Assembly (NCBI GenBank): GCA_965649765.1
Contig: OZ287749.1
Span: 24,304,001 to 24,368,000 of the forward strand
DNA from: Bispira polyomma
Taxonomy: Eukaryota
Direction: 5' to 3'
DNA: 64,000 nt
The position numbers and the translations under genes are program-made. The notes under the pieces are model-generated. The model ran no database searches and was not told where the DNA came from. It saw only the letters and a list, made by a program, of their open reading frames with translations. This document shows, in pieces, positions 36,001 to 53,799 of the stretch. The stretch's first letter is position 1. Each line of letters starts with the position of its first letter.

Positions 36001-39000
36001 TTGCCCTAACATATTTTATCGGTTAGGAAGAGAATAAAAAAATGAAAAAAAAAATTCTCATACCATTTTATATAGTAGATATTGGAACAAAGGAAGCCCT
36101 ACATCGGTTGATGTTAGCTCAGTTTGGTTTTAATAAATCGGCCAACTTCGGTGCCTGCTAAAAGGAAGCCCTGGCTAAGCCAAATAGTTACTACTAAAGC
36201 CTGGAATGTCACTCGGAACAGGAATAGACCTGCAAAAGTGTTAGTGTATAATAGACTTACATAAAGCAGCCTTCACCTACCTTTGACCTGCCTTTTTTTA
36301 GGGCTATTCTTGTGCTGACTGTGCTATATACATGACAATAGTAACTCAGTATATGTATTTGTCTTGGTATCTTATTCAATTATTTTTAACAGAAGCCTTC
36401 TTTAGTTGCAGTAATTTAATCAATTCTTCAATAATAATACATGTAATAAGATTGCAATGCTTTACACACGCTTTAAACCCATTAAAATTTATTAGACACA
36501 TCAACATACATTGTATTTATTCAAAATTACCCATGAGCTATTTAATATAAATTGAATTTCTTTTTCTATTGCAATTACATTTCCTCACTTTTGTGCGAGT
36601 GCCCTTACTGAAGGCAAAGAATTGGTCACATATCTTCGATGCAATGTAACAAACCAAAAGACGGAAATTATATATATGTAATCAGTCTGGTTTCTTAGTC
36701 AATGCTTATACTGTTAATAGGTAGCCAAGATTATGTAAAACTGTAACACAAGTACAGAGTAAATTGTAAGATTGACTTAGCTAAGAAACTACCAAAGTTG
36801 GTATCCTCAAAAAAATTAATTATATATTGATTAGCTCATTTTAAAAATTTTTTTTAAATGACTAAAATTCTAAATACAGTAGTTATAATGTTTAAATTTT
36901 GGATGATGTTTTTTTGGGCCTGCAAAATATCATTCACTAATTTTTATGATCAGCTTTCTGTATTTATCTTTTGTTTTGTTATTTCCATGTACGTCAGTGT
37001 AAGTATTTTCTTTTTTATTCAATCCATACTTACTAAATTTTTTGTAATAACTTACCTTAGCATTTTCCAGTGAGCTGTCTGACACTGATGACTGTGACCT
37101 GGAGGCTTCATCGTGTAACTTGCGATACCGCTTGGTCAGTTTGTATCGATTCTGGGTCAAAACTTGAAAACTGACAACTGAAATACAATGTAAAAGAATA
37201 ATTATATGAGTGGTAAAGATATACTGTAACATGCTCTTCCCAAGTTTCCATGTTAAAAAAAGGACAGTTTTTATTAACAATTCATAATTAATAGATTTAT
37301 TATATGTATATGTATTGAAAACATCCATTTATTTATGTTAAGTAGAAGTTTTGTTATGTAGAACAATTGTTTATGGTCTCTTCAGATTCGAAATAACAGA
37401 GTTCCATTGCAGGTCAATCAAGCTTGCATAATTAAAAATACATCTCCAAATTTTGTGATGAGGTTTTAGAGCCAAAAGGCACTACATTACAAATGAACCG
37501 CATTGTAACTGGCATAAGATCATTCTTAAGACTCGATTGTGCATACATACTATAATCAGACTATCTGTGGAATTTGTACAGAATCTTTGGACAGTAAACA
37601 TATGTATCAAATATGGCTTAGTGTTCAGTAAGCCATTGAATTCAGTGTTGAGTCACCTCCCTCAAAAGGTCACAAGTACAGGTTATTGCACATATTTTTC
37701 TACATATATAGTTCTACATAGCCTTCATTTAAAATTTGAGTAGGAGGTTAAACTTAAGTTTATTTGGACAACATGTGGCCAGTGCCTGTATTGTACAACA
37801 TGTGGTCAGTGCCTGTATTGTACAACATGTGGTCAGTGCCTGTATTGTACAACATGTGGTCAGTGCCTGTATTGTACAACATGTGGCCAGTGCCTGTATT
37901 GTACAACATGTGGTCAGTGCCTGTATTGTACAACATGTGGCCAGTGCCCGTATTGTACAACATGTGGCCAGTGCCTGTATTGGACAACATGTGGTCAGTG
38001 CCTGTATTGGACAACATGTGGCCAGTGCCCGTATTGTACAACATGTGGCCAGTGCCCGTATTGTACAACATGTGGTCAGTGCCCGTATTGTACAACATGT
38101 GGCCAGTGCCCGTATTGTACAACATGTGGCCAGTGCCCGTATTGTACAACATGTGGTCAGTGCCTGTATTGGACAACATGTGGCCAGTGCCTGTATTGTA
38201 CAACATGTGGCCAGTGCCTGTATTGTACAACATGGGGCCAGTGCCTGTATTGGACAACATGTGGTCAGTGCCTGTATTGGACAACATGTGGCCAGTGCCT
38301 GTATTGGACAACATGTGGCCAGTGCCCGTATTGGACAACATGTGGCCAGTGCCTGTATTGTACAACATGTGGCCAGTGCCTGTATTGGACAACATGTGGT
38401 CAGTGCCTGTATTGGACAACATGTGGCCAGTGCCTGTATTGGACAACATGTGGCCAGTGCCCGTATTGGACAACATGTGGCCAGTGCCTGTATTGGACAA
38501 CATGTGGCCAGTGCCCGTATTGGACAACATGTGGCCAGTGCCTGTATTGGACAACATGTGGCCAGTGCCCGTATTGGACAACATGTGGCCAGTGCCTGTA
38601 TTGTACAACATGTGGCCAGTGCCTGTATTGTACAACATGTGGCCAGTGCCTGTATTGTACAACATGTGGCCAGTGCCTGTATTGGACAACATGTGGCCAG
38701 TGCCCGTATTGGACAACATGTGGCCAGTGCCCGTATTGGACAACATGTGGCCAGTGCCCGTATTGGACAACATGTGGCCAGTGCCTGTATTGGACAATAT
38801 ATGGTCTGGGCCCGTATTGGACAACATGTGGCTAGTGCCCGTATTGGACAACATGTGGTCTGGGCCCGTATTGCACAACATGTGGCCAGTGCCCGTACTA
38901 GACAACATGTGGTCTGGGCCCGTACTAGACAACATGTGGTCTGTGCCCGTATTGGACAACATGTGGCCAGTGCCCGTATTGGACAACATGTGGTCAGGGC

Positions 39001-42000
39001 CCGTATTGGACAACATGTGGTCTGGGCCCGTATTGGACAACATGTGGTCAGGGCCCGTATTGGACAACATGTGGTCTGGGCCCGTATTGGACAACATGTG
39101 GCCAGTGCCCATATTGGACAACATGTGGTCTGTGCCCGTATTGTACAACATGTGGCCAGTGCCTGTATTGGACAACATATGGTCTGTGCCCGTATTGGAC
39201 AACATATGGCCTGGGCCCGTATTGGACAACATGTGGTCTGGGCTTGTATTCACAAAAGGTCTTAAGTCAATATTTAGTCTTAAGTCTGAGACTTTTGTCT
39301 TAAATCTAAGACAAAAAATTGTCTCAAATTGAGTGGTAATCACAAAACAGTTCAGCCAATTTTTTGTCCCAGATTTGGTTTTAAAGTTAAGACTGGTTAG
39401 GAGGTGTCTCTGAAAGTCTTTAACAAAAGGTCTCATTTGTCTCAAATCTACTATATATTTGTTTTTTTTTGTGGACTTTTTGTTTTTTTTTGTTGTTTTT
39501 TTGCTGGCAATATTGTGGTTTAGTAAAATTTCAGTAAAAGTCCATCTAGTGACTCCTTTTAGGTTAAACTTTCTCAGCTATTTTACAATATATTTTTATT
39601 TTAACAGCATGTAAAGATTAAACATCTAATAGAACAAGTAGAACTTACTGGCAGTAGCACAGATCACACTATATGTAGTGTTTTTATCTGGACAATTTAT
39701 CTTCGCTAAATTATTTGTAAAAAACTATTCATTTGGTGTGTAGATAGTATAGTATAAAAAGAGTACCAGAAAAACAGTACCAGAAAACCATTTAATAGTC
39801 AGTGCCTAGTGACACTTTTTTGTATGTTTGCTCATTGTAAGGTGGGCCATTAACTTGGTGTGAATTATGTTCATTTATACTTAGAGATGTTCTTTCAAAA
39901 AAACCTCTCCTCTTTGTCAACCCCCCCCCCCCCCTCCCCCATATCTTTAAAAAAACACACCATATTTATCACAACTTTATATATATATATGTACATATAT
40001 ATTTTTTTGTCCTTGGCAGATGCTGATCCCATAAATCAGACTGCTGATTCACTCTTCCCGCAGAAAACATAATTAAGCATTATCTTACACAATTTTGAAT
40101 GAAACAAATTGTACTTACCAAATACTCTGATGTAATGATTTATTAGTGCACCACCCTCACAAAATGTGCTTAATGATAGAAATGCTTTGTGGTTGTGTGG
40201 GTTTGATAATTATGTGGAATTACTATATAAAGAAACTCCAATCTGACAAGATTTGAAGTCTCTGTCGACAGAAACTCCAATCCTAATTTATTCTTCACTA
40301 TGTGCATGATTAATAAGAATTTGAATTTCAAATCCTGTCAACAATTTTGACAGAAATTTCAATTGGAGTTTCTGTCGATGGAATTTCAAATAATATTAAT
40401 AAAATTTAAACTTTGTAAAAGACACCAAGGAATAAAAACATATTTTATTAAGATCAAATTAATTATAATGAAAATTTAAACTTTGTAAAAGACATCAAGG
40501 AATAAAAACATATTTTATTAAGTTCAAATTAATTATAATGAATACTTAACAAAAATTGTAATACATAATACATGGTAAAAGACATAAAACCCAGATTAAT
40601 AATATCAATAATGTAAAGTCTTCCCCTTTCTTTACTTTAATTATATATTTGTATGTCCATCCAAGAGGTTATAACATTCTGCTTTCTTATCCATATTCAA
40701 ACAACTTTAAATGATACATTTCAGCTTCCAAAGCATAAAGGGCCATTCTATTATGTAAATTGCAAAAACTCAATCAAGGCCATTTTAAGGTACTACTGTT
40801 ATACTCTGGAATGCATAAATCACCTTTGATCAACTTCAAAAAAGATTACTTCTATTCCTCTTTCTTTAATTTATTTATTTAAATTTGTTTACTCTTTATT
40901 ATTTCTTTTTTTCAAAAACAAGCAATGTCATACTATAAGTTGTCTAACTTCAGACATCACCTTTCAACATCAGGATCCATTGTAACATTGTGTATTGTAT
41001 AATATTATGCTAAATAAATATTATTATTAATTCATTTTAATGTTACTGAAGATTTGAATTTCTCTCAATTGAGATTTATGTCAAATATATCTGACAAGAT
41101 TTAAAATTCTGTTGACAGAAATTCCAATTTCAAATCTTGTCACATTGGAGTTTCTGTCACGACATATGCATATATAGTGTTTTTTCAGTCTATTTTACAA
41201 ATGTCAAATACCTGGGATACCAGATTCACATTCACAGGTATGGTATGATAGAAGAAAGATGAAAGATAACAAACTGTATGAGCAGACATCTAAGTAAGAC
41301 CCAATACCAGTAGTAGCGCTATATCTTCCTTTTTCTAATGAGTTATATATTCCGATGAACAGTTTTTTGGCGGAAGAAAGCAGTAGAGTGTACTTGGTCA
41401 AGGTTTTCTGGGATTAAGCATGTTTACTTTACCAATTTTCTCACAGTCATTGGGGACCCCTGGAGAGTGGCCAATATGAAAAGAAGTTATGAGGAAGACA
41501 ATGATGTAGCTCTTTGGGCATTTATTATTCTACACACATCTAACATCTACTTGTTAATACTGTTAGTATATTTCACATTACATTACATACATTAATACAT
41601 ACACTGGTCACCTTAACACAGTTAAGGGGACCTTACATAAAGTTTACCTTTCAGAGGAAGTGGACCTTAAGGCCACCTTAAATTAATATCATTAGTGACC
41701 TAAGGCCACCTTAACTTTAAAAGATTACCAAGGTCTTATGCAAACAAACAGTGACTTAAGGTCACCTTAAATTATTTAAAGGAATTGAGTTAAGGTGAGC
41801 CTAAATGAGAATGATTTGAAAGTTAAGATGGGTACCTGTTTAAGGTTACCTTAATTATTTACATTTAGTTACATTTTAGTTTAAGGCTAGCCAAACTTTC
41901 TTTCAAGGCTACCTTAATGCATAATCCTTTTAAGGTAGAGGTAAAGGTTTACTTTAAAGTTGTTACATGTTATATACTACGTTACAATGCCCAAATGCCA

Positions 42001-45000
42001 GACTGGAATAGTCAATGCGGTATGATGTTTTGTAGGGATTTTGCTACAGAAGAGGAAGCGTTGGGGGTGGACTGCAAGTAGGCCCACACTGCAGCAGATC
42101 GCCAGCCACCATGGGCCATTATGGATTGCAGGTCCACATTATTGTCAAAGGCCAGAGTCGCCCCTGAACGCCTAAAGGAGTGGAAGCTGAAAGACTGCGG
42201 ATTTAATTTTAGTGAAACCATAATTTCTCTCAAGACTTGTCTGACTCTATATGTAGTAAGGGGAACTAACTTGCCCTTCTGTAAATACATAAATACTATG
42301 GATTCTTTAGTGTTTCTATTTTTTGCAAACATGGTCCTGAGTGCAGCCACAGGACACAAGGGGGAATTACCTAAAGCAGGCAACTGTACCACATGATACT
42401 GATTATACTTCCGTAAATTCTTAGCCCACCTGAGTACCACATGGACTCCAGGAGGGCTCCAAACAAAGTCCTCACAAGTGAGATGTCTCTGGGGGTCAAA
42501 TTGAGTGATACGTGAAGGAACTAAATTAGAGAGTCTAAAAAAGCCAAAAAAGGCTGTGAGAAATAAAGCTTTATACATATAAGCATGTGAATAAGCGGAG
42601 GCCTGCTGAAGGATGGAAGAGAGAATGGGAATGGTTATAATACCTTTCAATCTAGGTGAATAAGGGGTAGAAAGCGACAATGACTTAAAAAACAATTTAA
42701 TTTGTGGATGGGAGAACACATGCACTGGATAATCCCATAACTGGAAATAAAATTTTATAGCCGACAAATAATTTTGAATTGAAGGGGGTTTGAGCCCCTG
42801 CTGAGCAAGATATTCACAAAATTGCAGCATAAACTGGAGAGATTCCAGTTCCATCACACCCAGGAATATAGCAAATGCTAGAAAAAGTCTGATTGAATTT
42901 TCATAGGCCTGTTTCGTTCTTGCCGTCATGGCATTGTGTAACCTAGCCCTGGCGGAGTCATTGAGGAAATTTTGAAGGGGGGTACCTGAAATTGCATTAA
43001 AAGGCAGTATTCAATACAAAATTTTCATTTGTGACCTCCCACCATTCCTTCCGCATGACCTGCTCATGGACTTTAGGATTTTTGGTATCTGGAATAAACA
43101 TACGGGACAAATTGTCAGCCTGTACATTCTTTATTCCTGCAATATGGACAACGTCCAATTGGATATTGTTTTTTGCACTTTCTAACCATATGGATCTGGC
43201 TATTATACCCAAGCCTGGGTCATGGAACCTGCTAGAATTCAAACCTGCCACTACGGCGCCATTATCACACCAAACTTTTAATGTGGAATTGCTGAAACAT
43301 TTTCCCCATACCCTCATTGCCACGAGTATATTCCACATCTCGAAGTGGACAATACCAAAAGAGTTTGGTTTATGTTCAGGGAGGGCAGCAGCATACACAC
43401 TGTCCCCCCACATGGCCCCAATGCCAATAAGAGAGGCATCAACGTACAGCTCACTCACTGGTTCATCTTTGAGATGCATCTCCACTACCCCGTTGAATTT
43501 ATCTAAGAAAACATGGAACCATTCAAGATCAGCTTTGAACTCTCTGGACAGGGCTATGTTTCTACTAGGGTAGGTATGTCTGAGCAACCTCAACATTCTA
43601 TTAAGGAAAGTCTAGCAGGAGCCACACACCTATGGACGTACAATAACTTGCCTAGAATCGACTGTAGTTCTCTCCTAGTGCACTTTTGCTTGGTTCGCCA
43701 TTGGCTACACATAGTTTTGATCTGTGTGAGTTTATCTTTAGGAATTTTTAAAGTTCCCGTACTTGCGTTAACTAGAATACCCATACACACCACCTCCTCT
43801 GCGGGGGGGGGGGGGACACCTTTTTATGATTTATGGGTAGCCCTAGATGCTCAATTAACTGGTACAATTTGTCAAATGACTTTTGAGCTTTATCATCCGT
43901 TTCTACGGCAACTAGATCATCGATATAGTTCCATATATGGTATCCCTGCGCTCTCATTAACCGACGGATACTGTCAGTGACACGTTCGCAGACCGCGGTA
44001 CTATGCTTGTATCCCATCATAATGGCTAAATCAATATAGATATTCCCTAACCACTTAAGGCCCGTGTACTTGTAATCGCCCGGGTCAATCCTTAAATTTC
44101 AAAACGCGCGGGAGAGATCCAGTTTGTATAGTTTTGCTGTAGGACCAATTTCGTTTATCCGATTAACCAACATGTCAATAGTGGGTAAAGTGAGGATGAA
44201 TTCCTGGCCGTCATATAACCCATCGGTCACCACGCTATTAACTGAAGTGGAATCATGTGGCCAAGAAAGGTCCACTATTATGCGCCGAGAGTTGTCATCT
44301 TTAGGTCGCGTCATAACGGGTGAGCAGTGTAAAGCCTTATAAGGGATTTCTGTGAAGGGACCTGCAATGGCCTTATGCAAATGTTCAGTGACAAAGTATG
44401 TATCAAGACTGTCAGGGAATTGGTCAGCGCTGTCATGATTCTTGACATCACGATTAAACACAAAACCCTCTTTGTTCATGTCAAGGGGGAAACCGAACTC
44501 CAAATACTCAGGAAGCAATGTGTCACAATCACCTTTCAACACCTGACGCCAAGCTTCTATGTTGAGCTCAGAGGGCACAGGGACTCGAGCCCCCAAATAA
44601 TTGGGACAATCCCAACCCCCCACTAACTCATGTGCCATGACCGCCCATTGTTCCAACGTGTCAAAATTAATTACATTTCTGTGAACAGGGACACCATTAA
44701 AAGCTTTGTACATGCATTGGAATCCAAAGTTATCACTTAACACCCACTTTACTTTTGATACCCTTCACAATTGGGATATCCTGCACCTGCACTACTTGAC
44801 GCCTTGTTGATACCATAGGGGGGCTGCCCCTTAATTGTGGTTCATTAATACATAATGGAATAACTTCCTTTGAAACGTCAGAAAGGGGTTTGCCCTGAAT
44901 AAAGACTGAATGATCGGGGGGGGGGGGGGGAACCCTCAATGTTTTTACTACGTGGTTTTTTTTCTGTCAACTTCTCACCCCTTTCGCTCAGAGGGGGGGG

Positions 45001-48000
45001 AATAACTCTCGTTAAAGAAGTGTCTACCCCGTCTCTAATTGGACTGCTGTCAACATTAATTAAACCAGTGACATCACTGCCAACTTGTTTACTGCTGCCA
45101 ACTTGTTTACCACGGCACCTGTGTAAACATGCATTGTTAATTGTTTCAGGACATAGAATACATTTATTAGTACTTTTAGGCGGGAACCTACCTATACAGA
45201 TTTCTCTGGTGTTCCCGCTCTTTTTACAGGGCGGGAAGCCCACCTCTGCTCTACCTGTACACTGGTTATCAACATCAGACTTTACATATATACACTTTTC
45301 TCCCTCACGGGGTTGTTTACTTGATACACATTCAGTGTTACCATTACAATTTTGTACATCAGAATCTACTGTCCCCTCCTTCTTATGCCCCTTGGGAACA
45401 TAGAGCCGGGTAGGAACAATATTGTTATATTCACAGTTCTTTATCTCATGTACAACATAGCTATCAAAGTGGACCTTATAACTCCTGTTACTGTTGGCAA
45501 CAGTGCTAAAGGCACTGTTCCATATTACCCTTGAACGCACTGGAGGTCAATTCTGGGAGTTTTGTTGAACTCCTTAGATTGGTTTTGGGTTTTACCACAA
45601 TTAATTTCCCTGTGGAGCAGAATCTTTTTGGTTTGGTTGTAACACTTAGAACAAGCGTGTTTAAGTATCATTGAGCCAAATACATGATCATCAGGCTGGC
45701 TACATGTGCCCTTGTTAAACGCCGTGCACATGAGAACAGAACTTTTAGGTTTTGACTTGGAGTTTGAACTAAAACCATTGACAGATTCGTTACCAGAAAC
45801 GTCCTTAAGGGTACGCTGTGTTAACCGAGCCCTCAACTCGTGTATCTGGCTAAGGTTTCCCCAATTTGCCTTCCCCTTCTCAATCTCAAGCAACACCTGA
45901 CAATGGGCGCTTTTAATGGTATACCAACTAGTTTCTAACCCATCCCTCATGAGCTGCATACCATATTGCAGCATGTTGTCGCCCACAGAGGCGTCTTTTT
46001 CTTCAAACACACACCCTAAGTAACCTTGGAAAAACATAAGGGGGGTAAGATCCTGATATGAAGGTTGTTTTTTGCCAGAGGCATTATAGCAAAGCTCATG
46101 GGGCCAATTAATAACGTGTTTAACTGAGTGTTCGTTGGTTCGCTGCAACCCAGACTTTAATTTCTTACCGCTTTCAGGCGATGTCAGATAGTGGGAGCGA
46201 TTCCTGGTCAGTCACTGGTCAACTTCAGCTTGTATTCTCTCGTTGGTTCTCAAGAAACGCTGACTCGGCAGAATGGTCTCCTCAGCCGGCAGTCGATCAT
46301 AAGTTTGAGCATAGTCAGGGTCATAGTAGGGGTTTGACTTCCCCCTAAGCCCGTTTCTTAGTCCATGCAGCTCATTAACATCTGCCTGTGTGTCAGCAAC
46401 ATAACCCCGGTGCACTGGAGAGCTGTGTGAAGAAGTATCCTGGGTTAAAGTGTCAGTTCTTTTTCTGGCCCCTTGCTCCCGCTTCACCTCACACATTTCA
46501 CTTTCCAAGTGCTGTAACTTATCCAGAATTATGTTAAGTTTATCACCTACAGGCACTTTCCCCGGCTGGGCGTCTACTCCACTGTCCACCACTGATCTCG
46601 CGTTAGGTGTAACTTCCCAGGCTCCCTGCTGTTGAGATTTCTTCCTCTCCCTGGTAGCGGGGGTACTCGTCACGGCTAGGTCCAGCTTGCACTGTCTCCC
46701 GACTGGCCTGGCATGTACAACACTACAACGCTTGCAATATCCTGATCTGGTTGCCATAGTTTAACACAACCTACAATAGTTCTATAGTGTCTTTTTAGAA
46801 ATGTTTTTCTCTGTAAAATAGAATACAGGATTCTGCAGTTTATGCTTACATGAAGGCACGTACATGAAATTTTGTTGAATGAAATTCACAAAATAATGAA
46901 GAGAACACAGATGTGTGAGCAATTAACAGTGTACGTCCCCCAAAAACACGGCTATGAAGCCATAACAAGCATAAGTTGCAGACTCCCAATGAAGCAGCTT
47001 CTTCTGACACAGAACTGAAAATTACACAGGGTTTTATAGTTCCATTTCGTACCGCAGAGCCTTAATGGAACAGTCCATCACTGGGGGAAATAAGAGGGGT
47101 GATAATAATAAGTTTCTCACAGAAGGAGGGGGGACCCCTCAGACTGACCCAAAGTGCTACGCATCTTTTACACCATTGTAATTGTAATCAGAGTTATACT
47201 CAGCACATATATCTACCTTCATCTGGTATTTAGGGCAACTAATTAACCCTTTCCTGACTGTAACAGTCAACTGTCTCAGTTACAGTCATTCCCCCTAACT
47301 GAAGAGAGAGACTTGAGGATGACCATTTATCAATGTCCCCAAGGATCTTTAGCCCTGCCACTGGGGATAGGACCCAGTGACAGAGGACCGCCATTTTAAG
47401 TGGCCATCCGAGCCACTAGGCAAACATGTGTACACATCTTGCCCAAGGATGTTATCTCACTAATGATACTAGCAGTCAGTACCGGGAATAGAACTCAGGA
47501 CCTTCTGATCATCAGACCAACTCCTTAACCACTAGGCCATGGGGGACCACATGTCAAATAAACTTTTCTACATACATGGCAGGGCTGAGGATTGAACCTA
47601 CAATGGCAGAGGTGAAACACAAGTGTATTACCACAAAGGTCCCATGCCCCCCCTAGTGATTAGAAGTATTTCTTTACCCATGACTTGCCTTTCACCTCTG
47701 TTGACAGCAGTTTGAATCCCACTGGATCCTTCATGCGGTAAATTATGATAGGATCAACTTGCCATTTTTAGTTTAAGACACCATGGCTTTATTTTTAGTT
47801 TAAGACACCATGGCTTTGTCTAGTTTGTATGCCTCTTAATTCCTACTATGTACAGCGTTGGTCATTTTACCTTGTAGGTTTTTCCTTCACCTAATATATC
47901 TGACAAATTTGAAATTACCTAAAATATTGAAAGTGACGCAGAACCTAGACCAAATAATCTGTCCCTATTTAGCGAGATTCCTTACTGATATTTGGACGGC

Positions 48001-51000
48001 TGAATCACGAAAAGGGACAGAACGGCCTCCATAAGCAAAACGTTGTAAATTTAACCTGACGTAACATGGCCGACAGTGTTAAACTGGTGTATGTGGTTTG
48101 GTTTTTATTTTATATTAATTTTTATGTACCATATAGGCACGATACAACACAAAATCGGCTACTATATCATATATAAGGAATGAAGGGATGTATTTATTTT
48201 TATCAGATTCTATCTCTGTATATGCCGATTTTGATTTACAACGTTTTGCTTATGGAGGCCTTTCTGTCCCTTTTCGTGAGTCCGTCGGCAAAATAACAGC
48301 AAGGAATCTTGCTAAATAGGGACAGATTATTCGGTCTACGCAGAACCAAATAAACTTCAACACAAAAACCCAAGCTTTTGCTGGGTTATTAGCCAAATGA
48401 TGCTATAACTTAGAGAAGTCTTGAGACCTCCCCAAAATTAGGAATCCTATTTTGTCATTATAAGAATAACAGAGCATTGATTTCATAAAATCATAAATTT
48501 GTGATGTTTCTGTGATACCTTAAATCTATGTTTACTAAAACTCACTTGTTTGATATAGGTGTATGCATTAAAAAGTACCTGCAGAATTAACAGCCAAACT
48601 AAAGAGCAAATCAGTGACTTGTTCTACTGAATGACTTAATAAATTAGAGAACCATGGCATATTATGTATACTCTGTCTGTACATGTCAAATGTCCCATAT
48701 CCACAGGATTTATTGATTATTTAAATACAAGTATTTATACAGCGCCTTATTGATATGTCATTCTCTAAGACACTCATTCCCCCGAAAAGGATAGTCCTAC
48801 AAAATAGCCTGGGTCATCATTAGTAGGCAATGGCGTGTTCACATCTTGCCCAAGAATATTATCCCACTACTGAACCAAGCGACATTAGGAAGAGTTGAAC
48901 CAGGGACCTTCTGATCACCAAACCAACTCCCCCAGTGGAAGTATAAGTGGGAAGCTTCCGATCACCAGACCAAATCTTTAACCACTAGACAACGATTGAA
49001 CAACATTCGGTTTTACTTTAGGGAATAATATACCTGTCAGATTTTGCTTCCGAATCGTCATTCGATGTCCGTTACCGTCATCTGAAAATCTATATATATT
49101 TAAAAAAATTGGCTCCCGAATCTGAGATGACGTCAGCCAAGTGTATTCTACTTCTTTATAGTTTGATTTTTTTCGGATGACGTAAATGTGCATCAGATAA
49201 CCGATTTGAAAGCAAAATCGGACAAGTGTATTCGCCCCTTTATGGGGGTAATTTTTACTAATACACAATTTAAATTAGAATGAATGTTTGCCCAGAAAAT
49301 CAGTTCAAGCTATAAATAGATTTGATTTCACATTCATTTGGTTACAGTGCAATATGCAAGGCACTAGATAGTAAGTCTACGTTTGCATGTCAGCAATTGC
49401 CAACGGCGATCAGCCGACATCCGACGGGCAATCGGCAATTTTTATGTTTCCAAACAATTATTTGAGAAAAATAGATACCTGTATTTAAACTTAAATATTT
49501 TAGCCATTTAGCAAACGATTTTGAAGCAACAAAAAGCACAATATACCCAATAAAATAAGCTTTCTCATCATATTTTCTCGAAATTTTACCTTACTACTAG
49601 TACCAAAAAGAATCGCCTGACATTGCCGGCCGCCTGTTAGTGTTGCTCATATGGAAACACTTTGTTATAAATCAATGAAACTGATAAAATTGCCATCGGC
49701 TTGGTGGCTCAGAAAATTGCTTGCATGGAAAGACTCACTGACCCTTGTATTTAATGAACACAGGTAAAAATCTACATCAGTGTTATTTATATATTGAAAT
49801 GTCCTCAGTTGATGATAACTGGACCACTTGACGACATTCTCATCCACTCTTATTTCTCTGCTTACATCTTAAACACTCATAAATCTAAACTGATTGCGCA
49901 GTTCACGTATTAAAATTGCCAAGGAAAATTGCCCATTCATGAAAACCTGTGAAGGTTGAAAAAGGTTTTTCAGTTTTTAACAACCTTTAACAACCTTCAG
50001 NNNNNNNNNNNNNNNNNNNNNNNNNNNNNNNNNNNNNNNNNNNNNNNNNNNNNNNNNNNNNNNNNNNNNNNNNNNNNNNNNNNNNNNNNNNNNNNNNNNN
50101 NNNNNNNNNNNNNNNNNNNNNNNNNNNNNNNNNNNNNNNNNNNNNNNNNNNNNNNNNNNNNNNNNNNNNNNNNNNNNNNNNNNNNNNNNNNNNNNNNNNN
50201 NNNNNNNNNNNNNNNNNNNNNNNNNNNNNNTTTAGGGTCTTGATGTGTCAAACACCATAAAGGATTTATGAAGATGTTGTTTTTATTTATAAATGGCCTG
50301 AGTTTCCTTGGACCACTTAAATGGACACAGTCACTTACAGACACAGAAAGTGTATTAAAACATCTCACACATCTAATGGGTCAGATATTTGAAGGTTAGT
50401 ATGTGATTATTAGGTTCATATCCTTTGTGTATAAATATATGGAAATGCACATTAGTAGATTAACTTGTCCATAAGATACTTAAAGGAAAGTTTAGCCAGA
50501 ATAAAATATTGGCGGCAATGCAGTTGTTTTGCCAATAATGTACATTTGCACCACATTATTCTCTTAAATATAGTTTCAGTCTTAACTTTTCATTGGGAAT
50601 TAATTTTCACTGTTGAAAGCTAATAGAAGAAAAAAATATATGCATTTAATTATTGGATAAAATTTCCACTTATTCAGTATTAAACTGAACCCTTCAAGTA
50701 GAACTCTCTTAAGTTGATTAGAACACTTATGTGGAAGAAAATCTCCCATAAAAGCCCTTATTTCAAAATCTTTAATATTTCATCTCAACAGCAAGCATTT
50801 TTACATTTCACAAATAAATTCATAATTGCAAACAATTTGTCTACTTTGTAAAATTATTGTTGCTTACAAATATTACCTAACAGTATGAACATTTTAAAAC
50901 TGAGGTAAGTTTTTTGCATTCACTACACAATCTTATCGTCTAAAACAATAGGAATGCAAAGAGCAACTTGTTCCATTTGTGCACCATTCCATACTTGCCA

Positions 51001-52555
51001 CAAAGCACATTTAAGGGTCTGGTTCAAAGCATCAAACATTTAGTTTGTACACCCTTTAAACATACTATGTACGTTAGAGTTCTGGTTCAAAGCATCAAAT
51101 TTAGTTTATACACCCTTTCTACTTGCCATGTACATTAGGAATCTGGTTGAAGGCAACATGGTTTGTCCAGTTTACAGCTTTAGTTTGTACACCTTAAGGA
51201 TCTGGTTCAAGGCATCATGGTTTTGTAAACCTTTAGTTAGTACACAATTTCATACTTACCATGTACATTCGAGATCTAGTTCGACGCATCATGGTTTTGT
51301 CCAGTGTATACCCATAGTTTGTAAGCCTTTATGATTTGGTTCAAGGCATCATGCTTTTGTCCAGTGTTCACCCACCGTTTGTACACCTTAAGGATCTGGT
51401 TCAAGGCATCATGGTTTTGTCCAGTCTACATCCATAGTTTGTACGCCTTAAGGATCTGGATCAAGGCATCATGGTTTTGTCCAGTGTACACCCATAGTTT
51501 GTACGCATTAAGGATCTGGTTCAAGACATCATAGTTTTGTCCAGTGTACACCCATAGTTTGTATGCCTTGAGGATGTAGTTCAAGACATCATGGTTTTAG
51601 TCCAGTGAACACCCATAGTTTGTATGCCTTAAGGATCTGGTTCAATGCATCATGGTTTTGTAAACCTTTCATTTGTACACCAGTTCATACTCACCATGTA
51701 CATCATTAGAGATCTGGTTCAAGGCGTCATGGTTTTGTCCAGTGTATAAACGTTTAGTCAGTACACCATTTCATACTTACCTTGTACACTTAAAATCTGG
51801 TTCAAGGCATCATGATTTTGGTTGAGTCTGTAAATCTGTTAGTACACCATTTCATACTCACCATGTACATTAGATATCTGGTTTAAGGCGTCATGGTTTT
51901 GTCCAGTATACACTTTCAAACCATTGTTCTTGACACTGAAAGGATATTGAAGTAAGAAAACTGAAATACTGAGTGCATAAATTTTTAAATATAAAATTCA
52001 TATTTCTTTTTGCAAAATAATGAATTATATACACAAGTATATACATTAATGTTTCTCTTCTTTATTTAATGCCTATCTACTGAGAAAAATATGAGTGAAT
52101 ATTATTTGATACATTTAGTTTAAATATATTAATACATAATATATATTTAGTTTTTAAAATACATTTTAAAATCAATAATTTTTAGGCGTGACACAAAAAA
52201 TCTTTAACATACACTGAAAATTTTTTTTTATTACTTTTTGTAAACACACAATGTAAAACAACCATTTTTTACTTAGTAACCACATCTATGTATCCTATAT
52301 GGTTATTACCTACACTTTAGTCACTTGAATTTTTGCATTTACTATAAAATAGAAAACAAAGTATTCAAAAATGGTGTTAAAAAATTTGGATGAAAGTGAA
52401 CACGTTACAAAAATGATGGCGACAATTAATGGTAACAAAAGTGTTATTCCCCCACATTACCTGGTATCCTCACTGTACACAAATCCCTTGGCCTCTTCAC
52501 TGTATAAACAGATATAATCCCCAATCCGGAGACAGTGCTCTAAACTGGGATCCAT
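1..52555 (-). CDS. Divergent inositol 1,4,5-trisphosphate receptor-like Ca2+ release channel, N-terminal ~1160 aa (33 exons; continues beyond window start)
   Basis: Manual join 52555-52461,51935-51862,37177-37056,33430-33344,32024-31947,31003-30923,29382-29203,27123-27036,24283-24176,23626-23549,23221-23072,22618-22539,21444-21319,19806-19756,18941-18852,18270-18088,17275-17153,15467-15363,13572-13468,12945-12874,12620-12488,11487-11378,10531-10418,9668-9505,8072-8018,7678-7560,6800-6704,4683-4576,3872-3736,2894-2827,1698-1643,1225-1061,85-1 = 3487 nt. GT/GC-AG boundaries, matching phases, no stop. Motifs are colinear with ITPR: LRIGDYICLYSE (LHIGDICSLYAE), QNRYK (MNRYS), RRLLGQPIKYGDIVQLRH (RKLLGTVIQYGNVIQLLH), GGSVVQLFHKD (GGDVVRLFHAE), ELVRNNR (ALLHNNR), QLQLYKKLC (QLNLFARMC), LRYLCQGNAFVQ (LQNFCAGNQQNQ). 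Confidence 0.93.
130..499. mobile_element. MITE family with aaggggtgaatatacctg TIRs (TTAA-type, Kolobok-like)
   Basis: Related copies at about 20050-20380 and 49018-49241. Confidence 0.7.
829..1047 (+). mobile_element. tRNA-derived SINE family A
   Basis: A-box TGGCCTAGTGG, core ggtcggtggttt, tail aagctattgaaagtgac...taaattcaaat; other copies at about 7327-7550, 22735-22875, 24450-24555 plus 25448-25545, 27250-27465, 47650-47945 and 63540-63675. Confidence 0.85.
1061..1225 (-). CDS. IP3R-like exon 32: ERYNMVEVVTTISLTLLRYLCQGNAFVQDWLYDNIIEFL...IME
   Basis: RIH2 motif FC.GN..NQ..L. Confidence 0.9.
1643..1698 (-). CDS. IP3R-like exon 31: (G)ILEVILQLSTQVADIKLE
   Basis: ctcccccag / GTATGA; phase 1 to 0. 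Confidence 0.82.
2827..2894 (-). CDS. IP3R-like exon 30: (E)LSHVKGKLDESIIVAQNILINN
   Basis: start of the second RIH domain (QQRLLRNMG-like). Confidence 0.83.
3736..3872 (-). CDS. IP3R-like exon 29: VIVSAKSEAIQRE...ELCQILDRLL
   Basis: ttttccag / GTAAGG; phase 0 to 2. Confidence 0.85.
4576..4683 (-). CDS. IP3R-like exon 28: ALANVEDNTLRRKCLSLLNTYYSSKHDLLRTASRTQ
   Basis: matches [23 protein letters not shown]. Confidence 0.87.
4978..6411. mobile_element. Non-autonomous DNA transposon with about 120-bp TIRs and nested inverted repeats
   Basis: 4978-5099 inverted at 6291-6411; inner IR 5424-5507 / 5768-5852; no clear TSD. Confidence 0.85.
6565..6676. mobile_element. Tc1/pogo-type MITE (TA-CAGT...ACTG-TA)
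   Basis: Relatives at about 3360-3672, 9890-10040, 13125-13220, 26850-27017, 29450-29601 and 32140-32330. Confidence 0.65.
6704..6800 (-). CDS. IP3R-like exon 27: (W)DHFTLKVKVGMLLREMSNKADFVGDEVAKTLF
   Basis: tttttggcag / GTATGT; phase 2 to 0. Confidence 0.78.
6837..7143. mobile_element. TTAA-flanked piggyBac-like MITE
   Basis: ttaaccctttt...aaagagttaa; inverted homologues at about 27880-28115 and 34665-34907. Confidence 0.6.
7327..7550 (+). mobile_element. SINE family A copy abutting the exon 26 donor
   Basis: Colinear with 829-1047; B-box-like gggtttaaatcc. Confidence 0.82.
7560..7678 (-). CDS. IP3R-like exon 26: FLLGSFKDLQEK...DDYDSSGI
   Basis: tttttgcag / GTAGGT; phase 0 to 2. Confidence 0.78.
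8018..8072 (-). CDS. IP3R-like exon 25: (Q)SLELVDILLAKQFWRRMK
   Basis: ttcttcag / GTGACT; resembles IIEILQFILNVRLDYRI. Confidence 0.8.
9505..9668 (-). CDS. IP3R-like exon 24: VLHLMTTLIQLNIVC...TQVQVLL
   Basis: taag / GTAAGT; phase 0 to 2. Confidence 0.82.
10418..10531 (-). CDS. IP3R-like exon 23: EEVTYDTYHGLKEWVKGFCKSNPRMHSMNADRNIFIKE
   Basis: AAG acceptor (exact 5' edge uncertain), GAG|GTGGGT; matches KNKLTFEV. Confidence 0.8.
10521..10818. repeat. 152-bp tandem duplication covering the exon 23 acceptor
   Basis: 10521-10672 versus 10673-10818, diverged copies. Confidence 0.88.
11378..11487 (-). CDS. IP3R-like exon 22: (G)LFFEVDATQSNVSRMQSNNFMFEHISLKALNPEEIE
   Basis: ttattacag / GTGAAG; phase 1 to 0. 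Confidence 0.82.
12367..12507. repeat. 19-bp tandem repeat (acatacctgtaatgagctg, about 7 copies) spanning the exon 21 donor
   Basis: Direct inspection. Confidence 0.93.
12488..12620 (-). CDS. IP3R-like exon 21: GQNQRALELL...VPDSVRALVCQLIT(G)
   Basis: matches LPYDLRASFCRLML; the donor lies in a 19-bp tandem repeat. Confidence 0.85.
12874..12945 (-). CDS. IP3R-like exon 20: VEEDNHTNVTFFTKQLQLYKKLCF
   Basis: matches YYRYQLNLFARMCL. Confidence 0.9.
13468..13572 (-). CDS. IP3R-like exon 19: ESLCHLIHGKQIGRGNDVYISTDNGEHWTSLAKFV
   Basis: ctatcag / GTAAGA; a second in-frame donor lies at 13447. Confidence 0.82.
13792..15075 (+). mobile_element. Non-autonomous Helentron-like (HINE/DINE-type) element hosting the 42-bp array
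   Basis: ccgccaaggaggtta...gtttgtttg microsatellite...atgaaatttg layout; related minus-strand pieces at about 25570-25760 and 2680-2735. Confidence 0.6.
13902..14982. repeat. 42-bp minisatellite (some 41-bp units), about 26 copies (atgggttagatatgagcctaggaagaatccattacattttca)
   Basis: Direct inspection. Confidence 0.97.
15363..15467 (-). CDS. IP3R-like exon 18: ESYFFDLLGSLCTSDGIAITENQVQIAETLVRSCK
   Basis: RIH motif FLDYLSDLC...Q. Confidence 0.92.
17153..17275 (-). CDS. IP3R-like exon 17: NGVGRLCCQTMMELVRNNRTVIDRILPQHVDDIIELFSQQK
   Basis: RIH motif xLxxNNR. Confidence 0.92.
18088..18270 (-). CDS. IP3R-like exon 16 (RIH): MVDSFLEFLH...SNSVSNRLYCARFLPVFRHQLCLN
   Basis: tttcag / GTATGT; aligns to [22 protein letters not shown]. 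Confidence 0.88.
18725..18908. repeat. Duplication of the exon 15 3' end plus donor, with 12-bp (ttttatcatccc) sub-repeats
   Basis: tagtctcaccttagtgtgtttta at 18725 and 18843. Confidence 0.9.
18852..18941 (-). CDS. IP3R-like exon 15: TFDELQRRLSMKRDDKRDDKEKYNILKHTK
   Basis: cttcag / AAG|GTGAGA; position equivalent to PNRERQKLMRE. Confidence 0.8.
19756..19806 (-). CDS. IP3R-like exon 14: KHAGHLLTAIESLKITR
   Basis: ttgttccag / GTGAGT, 51 nt, phase 0; homology weak. Confidence 0.7.
20740..21200 (-). mobile_element. Degenerate L2-like LINE 3' fragment, related to the 34050 copy
   Basis: LSVSSTRPTEKSVG...KWNKL...FRSCLKTY with frameshifts. Confidence 0.6.
21319..21444 (-). CDS. IP3R-like exon 13: LKTSQTREYPDAFILQKVTTSEVDLFNYVFGLVPFMREIRDM
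   Basis: matches KEAFAIVPVSPAEVRDLDF. Confidence 0.9.
21542..21758. mobile_element. Palindromic MITE
   Basis: aaggaatctcaaatt...gccacc / ggtggcg...aatttgagattcctt. Confidence 0.65.
22539..22618 (-). CDS. IP3R-like exon 12: (D)FTYQRQLNTEGDSLETIQYDQATLLQ
   Basis: tttttcag / GTACAC; phase 1 to 0. Confidence 0.82.
23072..23221 (-). CDS. IP3R-like exon 11: (G)SSEFVPEASERTLFRFYP...VRICHQHWDSWINGTS
   Basis: phase 1/1; MIR motif similar to VRLRHLCTNTWVH. Confidence 0.87.
23549..23626 (-). CDS. IP3R-like exon 10: (G)ESLKWGDKFHLLHLTTRMYLTFDEE
   Basis: matches MIR motif WNSLFRFKHLATGHYL. Confidence 0.9.
24176..24283 (-). CDS. IP3R-like exon 9: (A)HLRVRKRNEMKMKSFLPPKNCSTYWQVVRGDSAIS; GC donor
   Basis: ttacag acceptor; CAG|GCAAGC donor; matches FLRTTGR...ALWEV. 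Confidence 0.85.
24556..25447 (-). mobile_element. 5'-truncated L1/Tx1-clade LINE (zf-RVT C-terminus) with 14-bp TSD
   Basis: FQFKILHRI...CSYC...LEHFFFYC...FWKQV...NYILLIGKYYI; A-rich tail; TSD tacagtgctttatc at 24542-24555 and 25448-25461. Confidence 0.9.
27036..27123 (-). CDS. IP3R-like exon 8 (MIR): GGSVVQLFHKDLEAYMAAEGVYPNVYNET; GC donor
   Basis: ctccag acceptor; CAG|GCAAGG donor gives the phase 1 needed by exon 9. Confidence 0.85.
27250..27465 (+). mobile_element. SINE family A copy
   Basis: Colinear with 829-1047. Confidence 0.82.
28256..28597. mobile_element. PIF/Harbinger-like MITE (GGGGCCTTACAGAC TIR, TAA flank)
   Basis: Inverted ends and (acactac) subterminal repeats; partial copy at about 8116-8232. 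Confidence 0.65.
29203..29382 (-). CDS. IP3R-like exon 7: VELEDQIVLESVKSIGTFLHV...AEVLR
   Basis: ttttacag / GTACGG; 180 nt. Confidence 0.88.
30923..31003 (-). CDS. IP3R-like exon 6: VKLDDYNSKHAQFRIVPRYKVKTEGER
   Basis: tttttcag / GTATGT; matches FYIQPFYKLRSIGD. Confidence 0.9.
31025..31395 (-). mobile_element. L2/CR1-group LINE 3' fragment
   Basis: SFAVDAPIVWNAIP...FRKQLETHLY; (attaca)n tail. Confidence 0.8.
31947..32024 (-). CDS. IP3R-like exon 5: LRHVFTSKFLLVSTTETSAVDRNKML
   Basis: ttccag / GTAAGT; matches LLHLKSNKYLTV. Confidence 0.9.
33344..33430 (-). CDS. IP3R-like exon 4: EAAEIEVKDNLTEQRRLLGQPIKYGDIVQ
   Basis: 87 nt, phase 0/0, strong ITPR suppressor-domain motif. Confidence 0.93.
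34050..34370 (-). mobile_element. L2/CR1-group LINE 3' fragment
   Basis: VGSRDFSVAAPMLWNRLP...FRKKLAYPP*; (caata)n tail. Confidence 0.78.
37056..37177 (-). CDS. IP3R-like exon 3: VSFQVLTQNRYKLTKRYRKLHDE...ENAK
   Basis: tttcag / AAG|GTAAGT; NRY motif. Confidence 0.9.
37764..39250. repeat. 27-bp minisatellite, about 55 copies (ggacaacatgtggccagtgcctgtatt)
   Basis: Direct inspection; produces the 9-aa periodic pseudo-ORFs. Confidence 0.97.
40230..41160. mobile_element. Element with repetitive TIRs (gacagaaactccaat/gacaagatttgaa) and an internal ~59-bp tandem duplication
   Basis: 40230-40390 inverted at 41045-41160. Confidence 0.6.
41521..41526 (-). terminator. Candidate polyadenylation signal (AATAAA) of the retrotransposon
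   Basis: About 490 nt after the YR stop, directly adjacent to the terminal motif. Confidence 0.4.
41606..41956. repeat. Array of about 10 dispersed palindromic 15-mers TTAAGG-NNA-CCTTAA in the element 3' UTR
   Basis: Copies at 41622, 41667, 41700, 41756, 41790, 41840, 41881, 41903, 41942 and a half copy at 41606. Confidence 0.85.
42012..42929 (-). CDS. Tyrosine recombinase (phage-integrase family) of the retrotransposon, intact
   Basis: 305 aa; catalytic R (FFRLSNL), K (WAKN), HxxR (HSFRR), H/W (HGGW) and Y (AVWAYL) all present; frame open upstream to a tttcag acceptor at 42986. Confidence 0.95.
   Translation of the reverse strand: MTARTKQAYENSIRLFLAFAIFLGVMELESLQFMLQFCEYLAQQGLKPPSIQNYLSAIKFYFQLWDYPVHVFSHPQIKLFFKSLSLSTPYSPRLKGIITIPILSSILQQASAYSHAYMYKALFLTAFFGFFRLSNLVPSRITQFDPQRHLTCEDFVWSPPGVHVVLRWAKNLRKYNQYHVVQLPALGNSPLCPVAALRTMFAKNRNTKESIVFMYLQKGKLVPLTTYRVRQVLREIMVSLKLNPQSFSFHSFRRSGATLAFDNNVDLQSIMAHGGWRSAAVWAYLQSTPNASSSVAKSLQNIIPH
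42997..45540 (-). pseudogene. pol (N-terminal extension, reverse transcriptase, RNase H) broken by several frameshifts
   Basis: RIIVDLS, KLDLSRAF, NYIDD, GLPINHKK, LQSILGKL; RNase H YVDAS...HFEM...VWCDN...HIAGIKNVQADNLSR; frameshifts near 44930 (poly-G), 44740, 44100, 43810 (poly-G) and 43600. Confidence 0.92.
45525..46757 (-). pseudogene. gag-like ORF1 with one in-frame stop (TGA 46212-46214)
   Basis: ORFs 46757-46212 and 46148-45525 share a frame; N-terminal CxxCxxxHxxPxGxxC, GKKLKSG...WPHE, C-terminal CxxFNxGxC...H...HxCxxC...H. Confidence 0.82.
47032..47038 (-). promoter_or_regulatory. Candidate TATA box (TATAAAA) of the retrotransposon
   Basis: About 130 nt inside the putative 5' end and about 275 nt upstream of the gag ATG. 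Confidence 0.4.
47310..47548 (-). mobile_element. tRNA-derived SINE family B (CORE-like ccttgggcaagatgtg)
   Basis: A-box TGGCCTAGTGG, B-box GAGTTCTATTCC; copies at about 2005-2207, 16790-16930, 25855-26086 and 48800-48990; body shared with 10090-10215, 26580-26680 and 34410-34520. Confidence 0.82.
47946..48338. mobile_element. MITE with about 100-bp TIRs (TAGACC...GGTCTA) and 9-bp TSD, Academ- or MuDR-like
   Basis: TSD cgcagaacc at 47937-47945 and 48339-48347. Confidence 0.9.
50001..50230. other. Assembly gap (230 N)
   Basis: Run of N. Confidence 1.
50985..51910. repeat. Degenerate 60-85 bp tandem array derived from the 3' part of exon 2 and its donor site
   Basis: Units share gatctggttcaaggcatcatggttttgtccagtgta with exon 2 (51876-51910). 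Confidence 0.9.
51862..51935 (-). CDS. IP3R-like exon 2: (S)VKNNGLKVYTGQNHDALNQISNVH(V)
   Basis: tcctttcag acceptor, G|GTGAGT donor; 74 nt, bridges phase 2 to phase 1 as required. Confidence 0.82.
52461..52555 (-). CDS. IP3R-like exon 1: MDPSLEHCLRIGDYICLYSEEAKGFVYSEDT(S)
   Basis: ATG at 52555; donor AG|GTAATG; matches the ITPR N-terminus. A cag 3 nt before the ATG suggests an upstream non-coding exon. Confidence 0.88.
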
Positions 52556-53619: not shown

Positions 53620-53799
53620 NNNNNNNNNNNNNNNNNNNNNNNNNNNNNNNNNNNNNNNNNNNNNNNNNNNNNNNNNNNNNNNNNNNNNNNNNNNNNNNNN
53701 NNNNNNNNNNNNNNNNNNNNNNNNNNNNNNNNNNNNNNNNNNNNNNNNNNNNNNNNNNNNNNNNNNNNNNNNNNNNNNNNNNNNNNNNNNNNNNNNNNN
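53620..53799. other. Assembly gap (180 N)
   Basis: Run of N. Confidence 1.

Follow-up and report, generated by a model that had tools for sequence, protein, structure and literature searches.

The cis-acting signals of tyrosine recombinase (YR) retrotransposons have barely been mapped. Passages of PMC7192593 describe the specificity of the YR as untested and the priming of reverse transcription as unknown; for DIRS-1, they report that a single-stranded cDNA is made, that a 3' hairpin has been proposed as the primer, and that the element tends to insert into existing copies. The defining sections of PMC9210276 and PMC3783388 give Ngaro elements gag, reverse transcriptase/RNase H (RT/RH), and YR genes in one orientation and no methyltransferase, and that of PMC4157794 defines PAT-like elements by a methyltransferase together with split direct repeats. 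Excerpts from the same literature report the loss of terminal repeats, a common event, in some Ngaro copies (PMC9210276) and the existence of solo AB repeats (PMC8547959). Outside the YR retrotransposons, the gypsy insulator is a cluster of Su(Hw) sites, described in part of PMC2374998 as about 340 to 350 bp of AT-rich sequence with 10 to 12 sites. Two nuclear receptor sequences also bear on what follows: TNAAGGTCA, given in a passage of PMC5476932 as the ERR element with C preferred at the N position, and TCAAGGTCACCTT, contained in an SF-1 EMSA probe in a passage of PMC3799431.

Here we describe an array of about 10 short palindromes, a real and tight cluster, in an untranslated region of a YR retrotransposon, where such an array is apparently undescribed. 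The retrotransposon lies in a stretch of 64 kb, referred to here as the window. The window contains SINE-like repeats, and a scan of 12 candidate exons gave two that were informative, with a RIH-domain match (E 5e-4) and a phosphagen-kinase match (E 3e-3), both below the curated cutoff. From these repeats and exon matches, the DNA is probably that of an animal.

Results

Genes of the host element

The array is carried by a minus-strand retrotransposon with gag, RT-RH, and YR genes. The coding features are as follows.

45525 to 46760, minus strand: ORF1/gag-like gene, its frame interrupted by an in-frame stop at 46212-46214
43772 to 45546, minus strand: broken pol region with reverse transcriptase similarity, in frames 44878-45546, 44099-44764, and 43772-44098
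42997 to 43611, minus strand: RNase H-like ORF, resembling by eye the C-termini of RT relatives
42012 to 43010, minus strand: tyrosine recombinase, 332 amino acids from stop to stop, with a Cre-like two-domain fold in the model

At its N-terminus, ORF1 carries a CxxC-H-C motif, which together with a coiled-coil-like stretch recurs in two weak relatives (E 4e-4 and 1e-3); a Cys/His motif lies at the C-terminus. It matched no Pfam family, and a search for full-length homologs returned none. The pol region contains a stop at 44099-44101, and its frame shifts lie close to G-runs. The RNase H-like ORF itself had no Pfam match. The end of this ORF overlaps the YR gene and thus leaves no room for a methyltransferase, and no methyltransferase family was matched in the nine RT relatives scanned, of 64 found.

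The YR had been called intact from the sequence, and it is: the frame is open and the catalytic residues are conserved (R159/K197/H277/R280/H300/W303/Y311). The gag and pol genes of the same copy are interrupted, unlike the open YR frame. Relatives of the YR numbered 328 at E<=0.001, the best 120 of which were 33 to 45% identical, and the nearest Atlas clusters were eukaryotic; a sequence search of the PDB with the YR alignment gave no match. The structural model (pLDDT 90.9) has its closest fold in Cre, with which it aligns from end to end (Foldseek E 2e-9, TM 0.69, 336 columns). No extra N-terminal arm-binding domain is present in the model, and the protein may be translated as a fusion to the upstream pol. 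The first conserved motif was located in 49 of 120 relatives, in which a median of 20 residues precedes it.

Probable ends, promoter, and poly(A) signal

The probable limits of the element and its candidate transcription signals are listed here.

41437 to 41461, minus strand: 3' junction motif AGGGGTCCCC-5 nt-CTGTGAGAAA, the probable right end
47113 to 47139, minus strand: 5' junction motif AGGGGTCCCC-7 nt-CTGTGAGAAA, the probable left end
47032 to 47038, minus strand: TATAAAA, a candidate promoter in the 5' end, 83 nt inside the 5' junction motif
41521 to 41526, minus strand: AATAAA, the probable poly(A) signal

The pattern GGGG.CCCC is present at just two places in the 64 kb, 41452-41460 and 47130-47138. 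Both have the same orientation, and in both the GC block precedes CTGTGAGAAA, with 5 or 7 nt between the two. Two such 10-nt blocks common to both flanks were found in none of 2,000 shuffles. We take the bipartite motifs to be the probable recombination junctions, left and right, of a 5.7-kb element organized as A-genes-B. The A2-B2 part may have been lost from this copy by recombination, and the element may sit in a junction-like target; the preference of DIRS-1 for existing copies could account for such a target.

No long repeat between the element ends was found by self-BLAST or local alignment, and hairpins at the junctions were within the shuffle range (z 1.0 to -2.0). A terminal inverted repeat between the ends was set aside with a best inverted alignment within the shuffle range, as was an ICR/ITR based on a 13-bp inverted match, since 67 of 300 shuffles gave one as long. 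Insertion into a SINE was likewise not supported: of 300 shuffles, 43 and 28 gave a likeness as good as that of 21 to 22 nt at the rebuilt empty site; a window scan with the SINE profile had no match in the flank. The right flank does match 10856-10907 over 51 nt (0 of 300 shuffles).

Between 41200 and 42011, the element-sense strand has no A(A/T)TAAA other than the AATAAA at 41521, which overlaps the end of the 10-bp inverted repeat arm at 41513-41522. The array lies between this AATAAA and the YR stop codon and is therefore in the 3' untranslated region.

A tight cluster of palindromic 15-mers

The array consists of nine core sites of the form TTAAGG-YYA-CCTTAA, spanning 41622-41956, and several partial ones.

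41602 to 41956, no strand assigned: palindromic 15-mer array, with core sites at 41622, 41667, 41700, 41756, 41790, 41840, 41881, 41903, and 41942
41602, 41638, 41656, and 41930: partial sites of the array

Every copy named in the sequence-only reading is where it was said to be. Those at 41667, 41756, and 41840 are perfect, those at 41622, 41700, and 41903 have one mismatch, that at 41790 has two, and those at 41881 and 41942 have three mismatches to TTAAGG-NNN-CCTTAA, as does the partial site at 41930. Sites start 22 to 56 bp apart, with their half-sites in alternating orientation, and helical phasing was looked for and not found. The arms had been described as conserved and the 3-nt center as variable. 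The first statement holds, arm columns being kept in 6 to 9 of the nine core sites against mostly 3 to 6 of nine in the flanks. The second holds for part of the center; its third base is A in eight of nine core sites, which makes a TTAAGGT half-site the better description of the unit. Three leftward extensions into an overlapping palindrome are present (41660, 41695, and 41751), although none is an exact GTGACCTTAAGGTCAC.

The clustering is not readily produced by shuffling. Matches to TTAAGG-NNN-CCTTAA with <=2 mismatches number 12 across the window against a shuffle mean of 4.68, 12 being reached in 1 of 100 shuffles, and seven of the 12 fall in 41622-41917. The TTAAGGT half-site has 11 copies in the array, where 0.09 would be expected from the rest of the window, and TAAGG half-sites number 16, eight per strand. 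Tests that were blind to the motif were run on 41452-42011. There, the commonest gapped 4+4 word occurred six times, a count reached in 2 of 500 shuffles, and palindromes with a 3-nt gap numbered 15 against a mean of 4.4, with none of 300 shuffles having as many. Palindromes with a 1-nt gap were also enriched (0 of 300 shuffles), those with a 5-nt gap were borderline (p 0.08), and those with gaps of 0, 2, 4, 6, 7, or 8 nt were not enriched. The 6- to 8-nt gaps are those usual for YR crossover spacers, as the sequence-only reading had noted. The sole other such cluster in the window lies inside a 42-bp tandem repeat.

Spacers between the palindromes

The spacers had been called unrelated. This is true of any one pair (best single pair, p=0.73) and of the left flank (p=0.84), but not of the spacers taken together, whose summed pairwise similarity is higher than in controls (pooled p=0.011), nor of the right flank (p=0.026). 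Autocorrelation peaks occur in the array at lags of 50 and 90 nt. A decayed tandem repeat with homologous spacers was considered in this context: Tandem Repeats Finder (TRF) made no call on the array region, and the homology is of the weak, pooled kind just given. The residual homology and the autocorrelation peaks fit duplication followed by decay with the motif retained, a pattern that recurrent fold-back copying could mimic.

A host factor as the candidate reader of the array

A multimeric protein-binding array, as first proposed, is still the best general reading, while support for the binders and structures then named is weak. We tentatively prefer a clustered cis-regulatory module, bound as double-stranded DNA by a host factor; with one copy of the element examined, we hold this to be quite possible, at a little short of even chances. 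The cluster would have grown by local duplication; the spacers would then have decayed, while selection for binding of a sequence-specific host protein preserved the motif. The protein may be a dimer seated on the 6+3+6 dyad or, alternatively, an ERR/NR5A-type nuclear receptor that recognizes AAGGYYA as an extended half-site. With several sites occupied, the module would enhance or insulate the element's own promoter, which would adjoin the 3' end in a circular intermediate.

The strong enrichment of the motif and the conservation of arm columns above the flanks speak for such a module. Spacing varies among the half-sites and both orientations are represented, as they might be in a cluster of factor sites, and the alternatives of YR binding and triloop hairpins fail specific tests. 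Eight half-sites agree with TNAAGGTCA at <=1 mismatch against 0.33 expected (one exact, at 41756), and six agree with YNAAGGYYA, all six on the plus strand, but these nuclear receptor patterns were chosen after the array had been seen, so their enrichment is partly circular. The half-sites of the array overlap and are thus not the canonical IR3 of AGGTCA. For a nuclear receptor that binds as a monomer, the conserved CCTTAA arm would be superfluous and goes unexplained, so that a dimer from some other protein family is just as possible. A putative resemblance to the Prospero/PROX1 motif found no support in the literature searched. The lack of helical phasing counts against a host factor module, as do two observations that favor a role in RNA, namely, changes compatible with G.U pairing on the sense strand only and flanks that pair.

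Predicted folding of the 3' untranslated region

Those two observations belong to an alternative in which the self-complementary half-sites pair as RNA or single-stranded DNA within a domain closed by an interrupted stem of about 30 bp. The predicted arms of this stem, in the element-sense RNA, are as follows.

41961 to 42000, minus strand: 5' arm of the predicted closing stem, containing 41986-41995
41507 to 41545, minus strand: 3' arm of the predicted closing stem, containing 41513-41522 and overlapping the AATAAA

The stem would join sequence just after the YR stop to the sole poly(A) signal. It might serve to mask this first signal, with transcription reading into downstream repeats, or the domain might act in RNA dimerization, packaging, or template pairing during reverse transcription. 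We consider such an element unlikely, though well worth weighing. The sense RNA folds with a z of -4.0 and the plus-strand single-stranded DNA with a z of -2.2, and the closing helices are predicted at p 0.84-0.97. The duplex between the flanks (-31.5 kcal/mol) was equaled in 5 of 1,000 shuffles and in none of 1,000 genomic controls, figures to be read in light of its segments having been picked after the fold was seen. The nine core sites carry four wobble-type changes, each of them G.U compatible on the element-sense strand and not one on the antisense; two-sided changes are seen in the two outer sites. The single-stranded cDNA and the proposed hairpin primer of DIRS-1 offer a precedent.

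Several results weaken this reading. When only the spacers are shuffled and the motif blocks are held in place, the native folding energy does not stand out (sense z 0.26, 89 of 150 shuffles as low; antisense z 0.77), so the folding signal comes from the palindromes. Local triloop hairpins, one of the original suggestions, are disfavored: their predicted probability in sense RNA at 37 C is <=0.15 for eight of nine sites and 0.35 for one, and half-sites in the predicted fold pair with neighbors instead. The 10-bp inverted repeat said to bracket the array (41513-41522/41986-41995) is present; on its own it is at chance level, being as long in 113 of 500 shuffles, and it is part of the longer flank-to-flank stem. 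The A-to-G bias behind the wobble changes could be mutational, and sites 41790 and 41881 may share descent. Rfam covariance models had no match at E<=1 in 40500-48000. Moreover, pairing alone would not preserve eleven identical half-sites.

A possible neutral origin

The array could also be a functionless relic: slippage or fold-back template switching would have duplicated and inverted a palindrome-containing unit in place, and the copies would now be in decay. The weak homology between spacers, the peaks at lags 50 and 90, and the alternating half-site orientation would all follow from this. The element around the array is partly decayed too, and a profile built from 13 array sites found no trace of the motif elsewhere in it. 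Neutral decay does not readily account for motif columns that are sharply more conserved than their flanks, and the missing TRF call and the lack of any single spacer pair that aligns above chance also argue against it. On balance, a neutral relic seems improbable, if by no means far-fetched.

Proteins of the element as possible readers of the array

The element's own ORF1/Gag might instead bind the array, as DNA or RNA, in the form of a dimer with its zinc motif and coiled coil, for packaging, for tethering of a circular intermediate, or for target selection. We rate this as decidedly unlikely. The N-terminal CxxC-H-C motif and coiled-coil-like stretch kept in the two weak relatives are consistent with it, although the absence of a Pfam family or full-length homolog among the search results is not in its favor, and the zinc motifs of Gag proteins usually act on single-stranded nucleic acid. 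In Cafeteria Ngaro elements, according to a passage of PMC8547959, loss of ORF1 coincides with a changed insertion preference. An extension of this idea, which we regard as very unlikely, is a YR retrotransposon lineage that lacks split or inverted terminal repeats and would recombine at a bipartite att-like junction, with the array and stem read by an ORF1 dimer that would control 3'-end formation and RNA packaging or circle tethering. To judge by the literature searched, an array read by ORF1 would have no defined predecessor among protein-binding cis-elements of this retrotransposon order.

Binding by the YR is the least likely of the explanations considered. It would make the 15-mers accessory or decoy sites, one protomer on each, or make a lox/dif-like pair a secondary crossover site.

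41606 to 41632, no strand assigned: lox/dif-like pair with 10-bp arms, one mismatch, and a 7-bp spacer

Despite the position of the array directly downstream of the YR gene, a 15-mer size close to that of one Cre half-site, and the presence of this 10-7-10 inverted pair, the reading is very improbable: the accessory or arm-type (lambda-type) sites proposed earlier do not suit a Cre-like YR that lacks an arm-binding domain and has relatives with short N-termini, palindromes with 6- to 8-nt gaps are not enriched, the lox-like pair is the only one in the array and has 33 equals across the window, and the array profile of 13 sites singled out neither junction (best P 0.08-0.98).

Searches for related loci

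A YR scan of bacterial and archaeal genome contigs gave 49 pattern matches and no confirmed relative. A DNA pattern of two sites was found at two loci, in an archaeal metagenome-assembled genome (MAG) and in Plastoroseomonas arctica; both lie between genes, with only two copies in the 1.2 kb around each. A uniform-base estimate gives 0.13 expected. BLAST searches returned one phage record and two plasmid records with matches of 26 to 28 nt (E 0.2-0.5). No related locus was thus found in bacterial or archaeal contigs or in phage or plasmid sequences. Traces of a translated array were sought in 188 YR-like proteins, two of which had a long tail, neither with the expected repeat.

The array had been thought undescribed, and no title or opening of an abstract among the papers found on YR retrotransposons and on the motif describes one. 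The word fragment "palindrom" does not occur in the five YR papers searched for it, PMC6681497, PMC13465315, PMC3266345, and PMC3783388 among them. The four supplementary files of PMC4157794 gave no match, and those of PMC6681497, represented by 12 of 13 files and six passages, gave scattered single matches only.

Discussion

The 15-bp motif array, the candidate poly(A)-linked stem, and the candidate bipartite junction are all short and well defined enough to be put to binding, reporter, and recombination assays. Should the array prove to be a cluster of host factor sites, as we tentatively prefer, it would show which signal wakes or insulates such elements in an invertebrate. This would be a familiar kind of result, docking sites for host factors being a trick known from other jumping genes. 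Reading by ORF1, or control of 3'-end formation, would instead give access to the mechanism of replication.

The element is like Ngaro in having gag, RT/RH, and YR all in one orientation and no methyltransferase. It differs in that this copy is without the split direct repeats A1...B1-A2-B2 and has two 10-bp blocks in both flanks instead, and for the lack of split direct repeats we have not filed it as a Ngaro member. No palindrome array is mentioned for Ngaro elements in the passages covered. DIRS1-like elements are YR retrotransposons as well, but the element here has no methyltransferase after the RNase H and neither inverted terminal repeats nor an internal complementary region. It differs from PAT-like elements in lacking both the methyltransferase and the split direct repeats.

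The palindromes themselves also resemble known sites in part. Compared with Cre/loxP and Xer/dif, the 15-mers have arms of 6 to 7 bp and a center of 1 to 3 nt and are far shorter than the arm-spacer-arm sites of those systems. Array sites share the AAGGYYA core with ERR and NR5A sites, and site 41756 is one base off the SF-1 (NR5A) EMSA probe sequence TCAAGGTCACCTT over 13 nt. The C preferred by ERR before AAGG is found only at 41903, most copies having T, and the array sites differ from those of both ERR and SF-1 in adding the conserved dyad arm CCTTAA. Unlike the gypsy insulator, the array is built of dyads that alternate in orientation, it follows the last gene on the 3' side, and its motifs have no sequence in common with the Su(Hw) consensus. 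The two are alike in having at least 10 short motifs, variable AT-rich spacers, and a location in the untranslated region of a retrotransposon, and the gypsy insulator of Drosophila is the closest known anatomy to the array.

Element ends and the palindrome array

Both flanks of the minus-strand gag/RT-RH/YR retrotransposon, at 41437 to 41461 and 47113 to 47139, carry a common bipartite motif, two 10-nt blocks whose spacers differ (5 nt at the 3' end versus 7 nt at the 5' end). Judged from their sequence, the two copies are probable recombination junctions of the element. If the circle junction were rebuilt, AGGGGT (41461) would face ACCCCT (47100 to 47095) as well. The left flank (47149 to 47161) and the 3' region (41506 to 41518) share a 13-bp inverted match that has a single mismatch; its left-flank arm lies near the 5' junction, and region-wide a match of this kind is at chance level (67 of 300 shuffles). 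The region of the palindrome array, 41560 to 41985, is exactly strand balanced in its base counts (A = T and C = G), and CpG is almost missing from it (observed/expected, 0.09).

Coding region

In pol, frame changes coincide with long G runs at 43802 to 43816 and 44916 to 44931, and the breaks there may be assembly errors, not true breaks. Between gag and the reverse transcriptase, the sense strand of 45201 to 45500 gives a fold z score of −5.0, and the predicted fold is possibly a recoding or regulatory hairpin.

Other features of the window

Repeats, assembly gaps and candidate exons
37764 to 39236, minisatellite, 27-bp unit, 54.6 copies, several frames open
13912 to 14982 and 51018 to 51907, tandem repeats (42-bp unit with internal palindrome; compound 60/61/81-bp arrays)
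47946 to 48338, inverted arms, 105 nt each, 90% complementary, separated by 183 nt
47175 to 47547, SINE-like family 1, further copies near 2009, 10112, 25851, 26578 and 34394
near 820, 7321, 22687, 27243 and 63511, copies of SINE-like family 2
50001 to 50230 and 53620 to 53799, runs of N marking assembly gaps, on the upstream side of the element at distances of 3 and 6.5 kb
3736 to 18941, minus strand, several candidate exons

The inverted-arm pair is MITE-like. At least two SINE-like families are present, and their heads are apparently tRNA derived; the core of the second has TGTGAGAAA, which resembles the junction motif. On the minus strand, candidate exon 15369 to 15467 matches the RIH domain (IP3/ryanodine receptors) below the curated cut-off, and exon 60193 to 60276 matches ATP:guanido phosphotransferase (arginine/creatine kinase family), also below cut-off.

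Similar dyads in prokaryotes

Two prokaryotic intergenic regions retrieved with a two-site DNA pattern from the array, L001 (5001 to 5067) and L002 (5001 to 5070), from an archaeal MAG and Plastoroseomonas arctica, contain one pair of similar dyads apiece. Within the 1.2 kb read around each, these pairs appear unrelated to the element; they resemble operator pairs.
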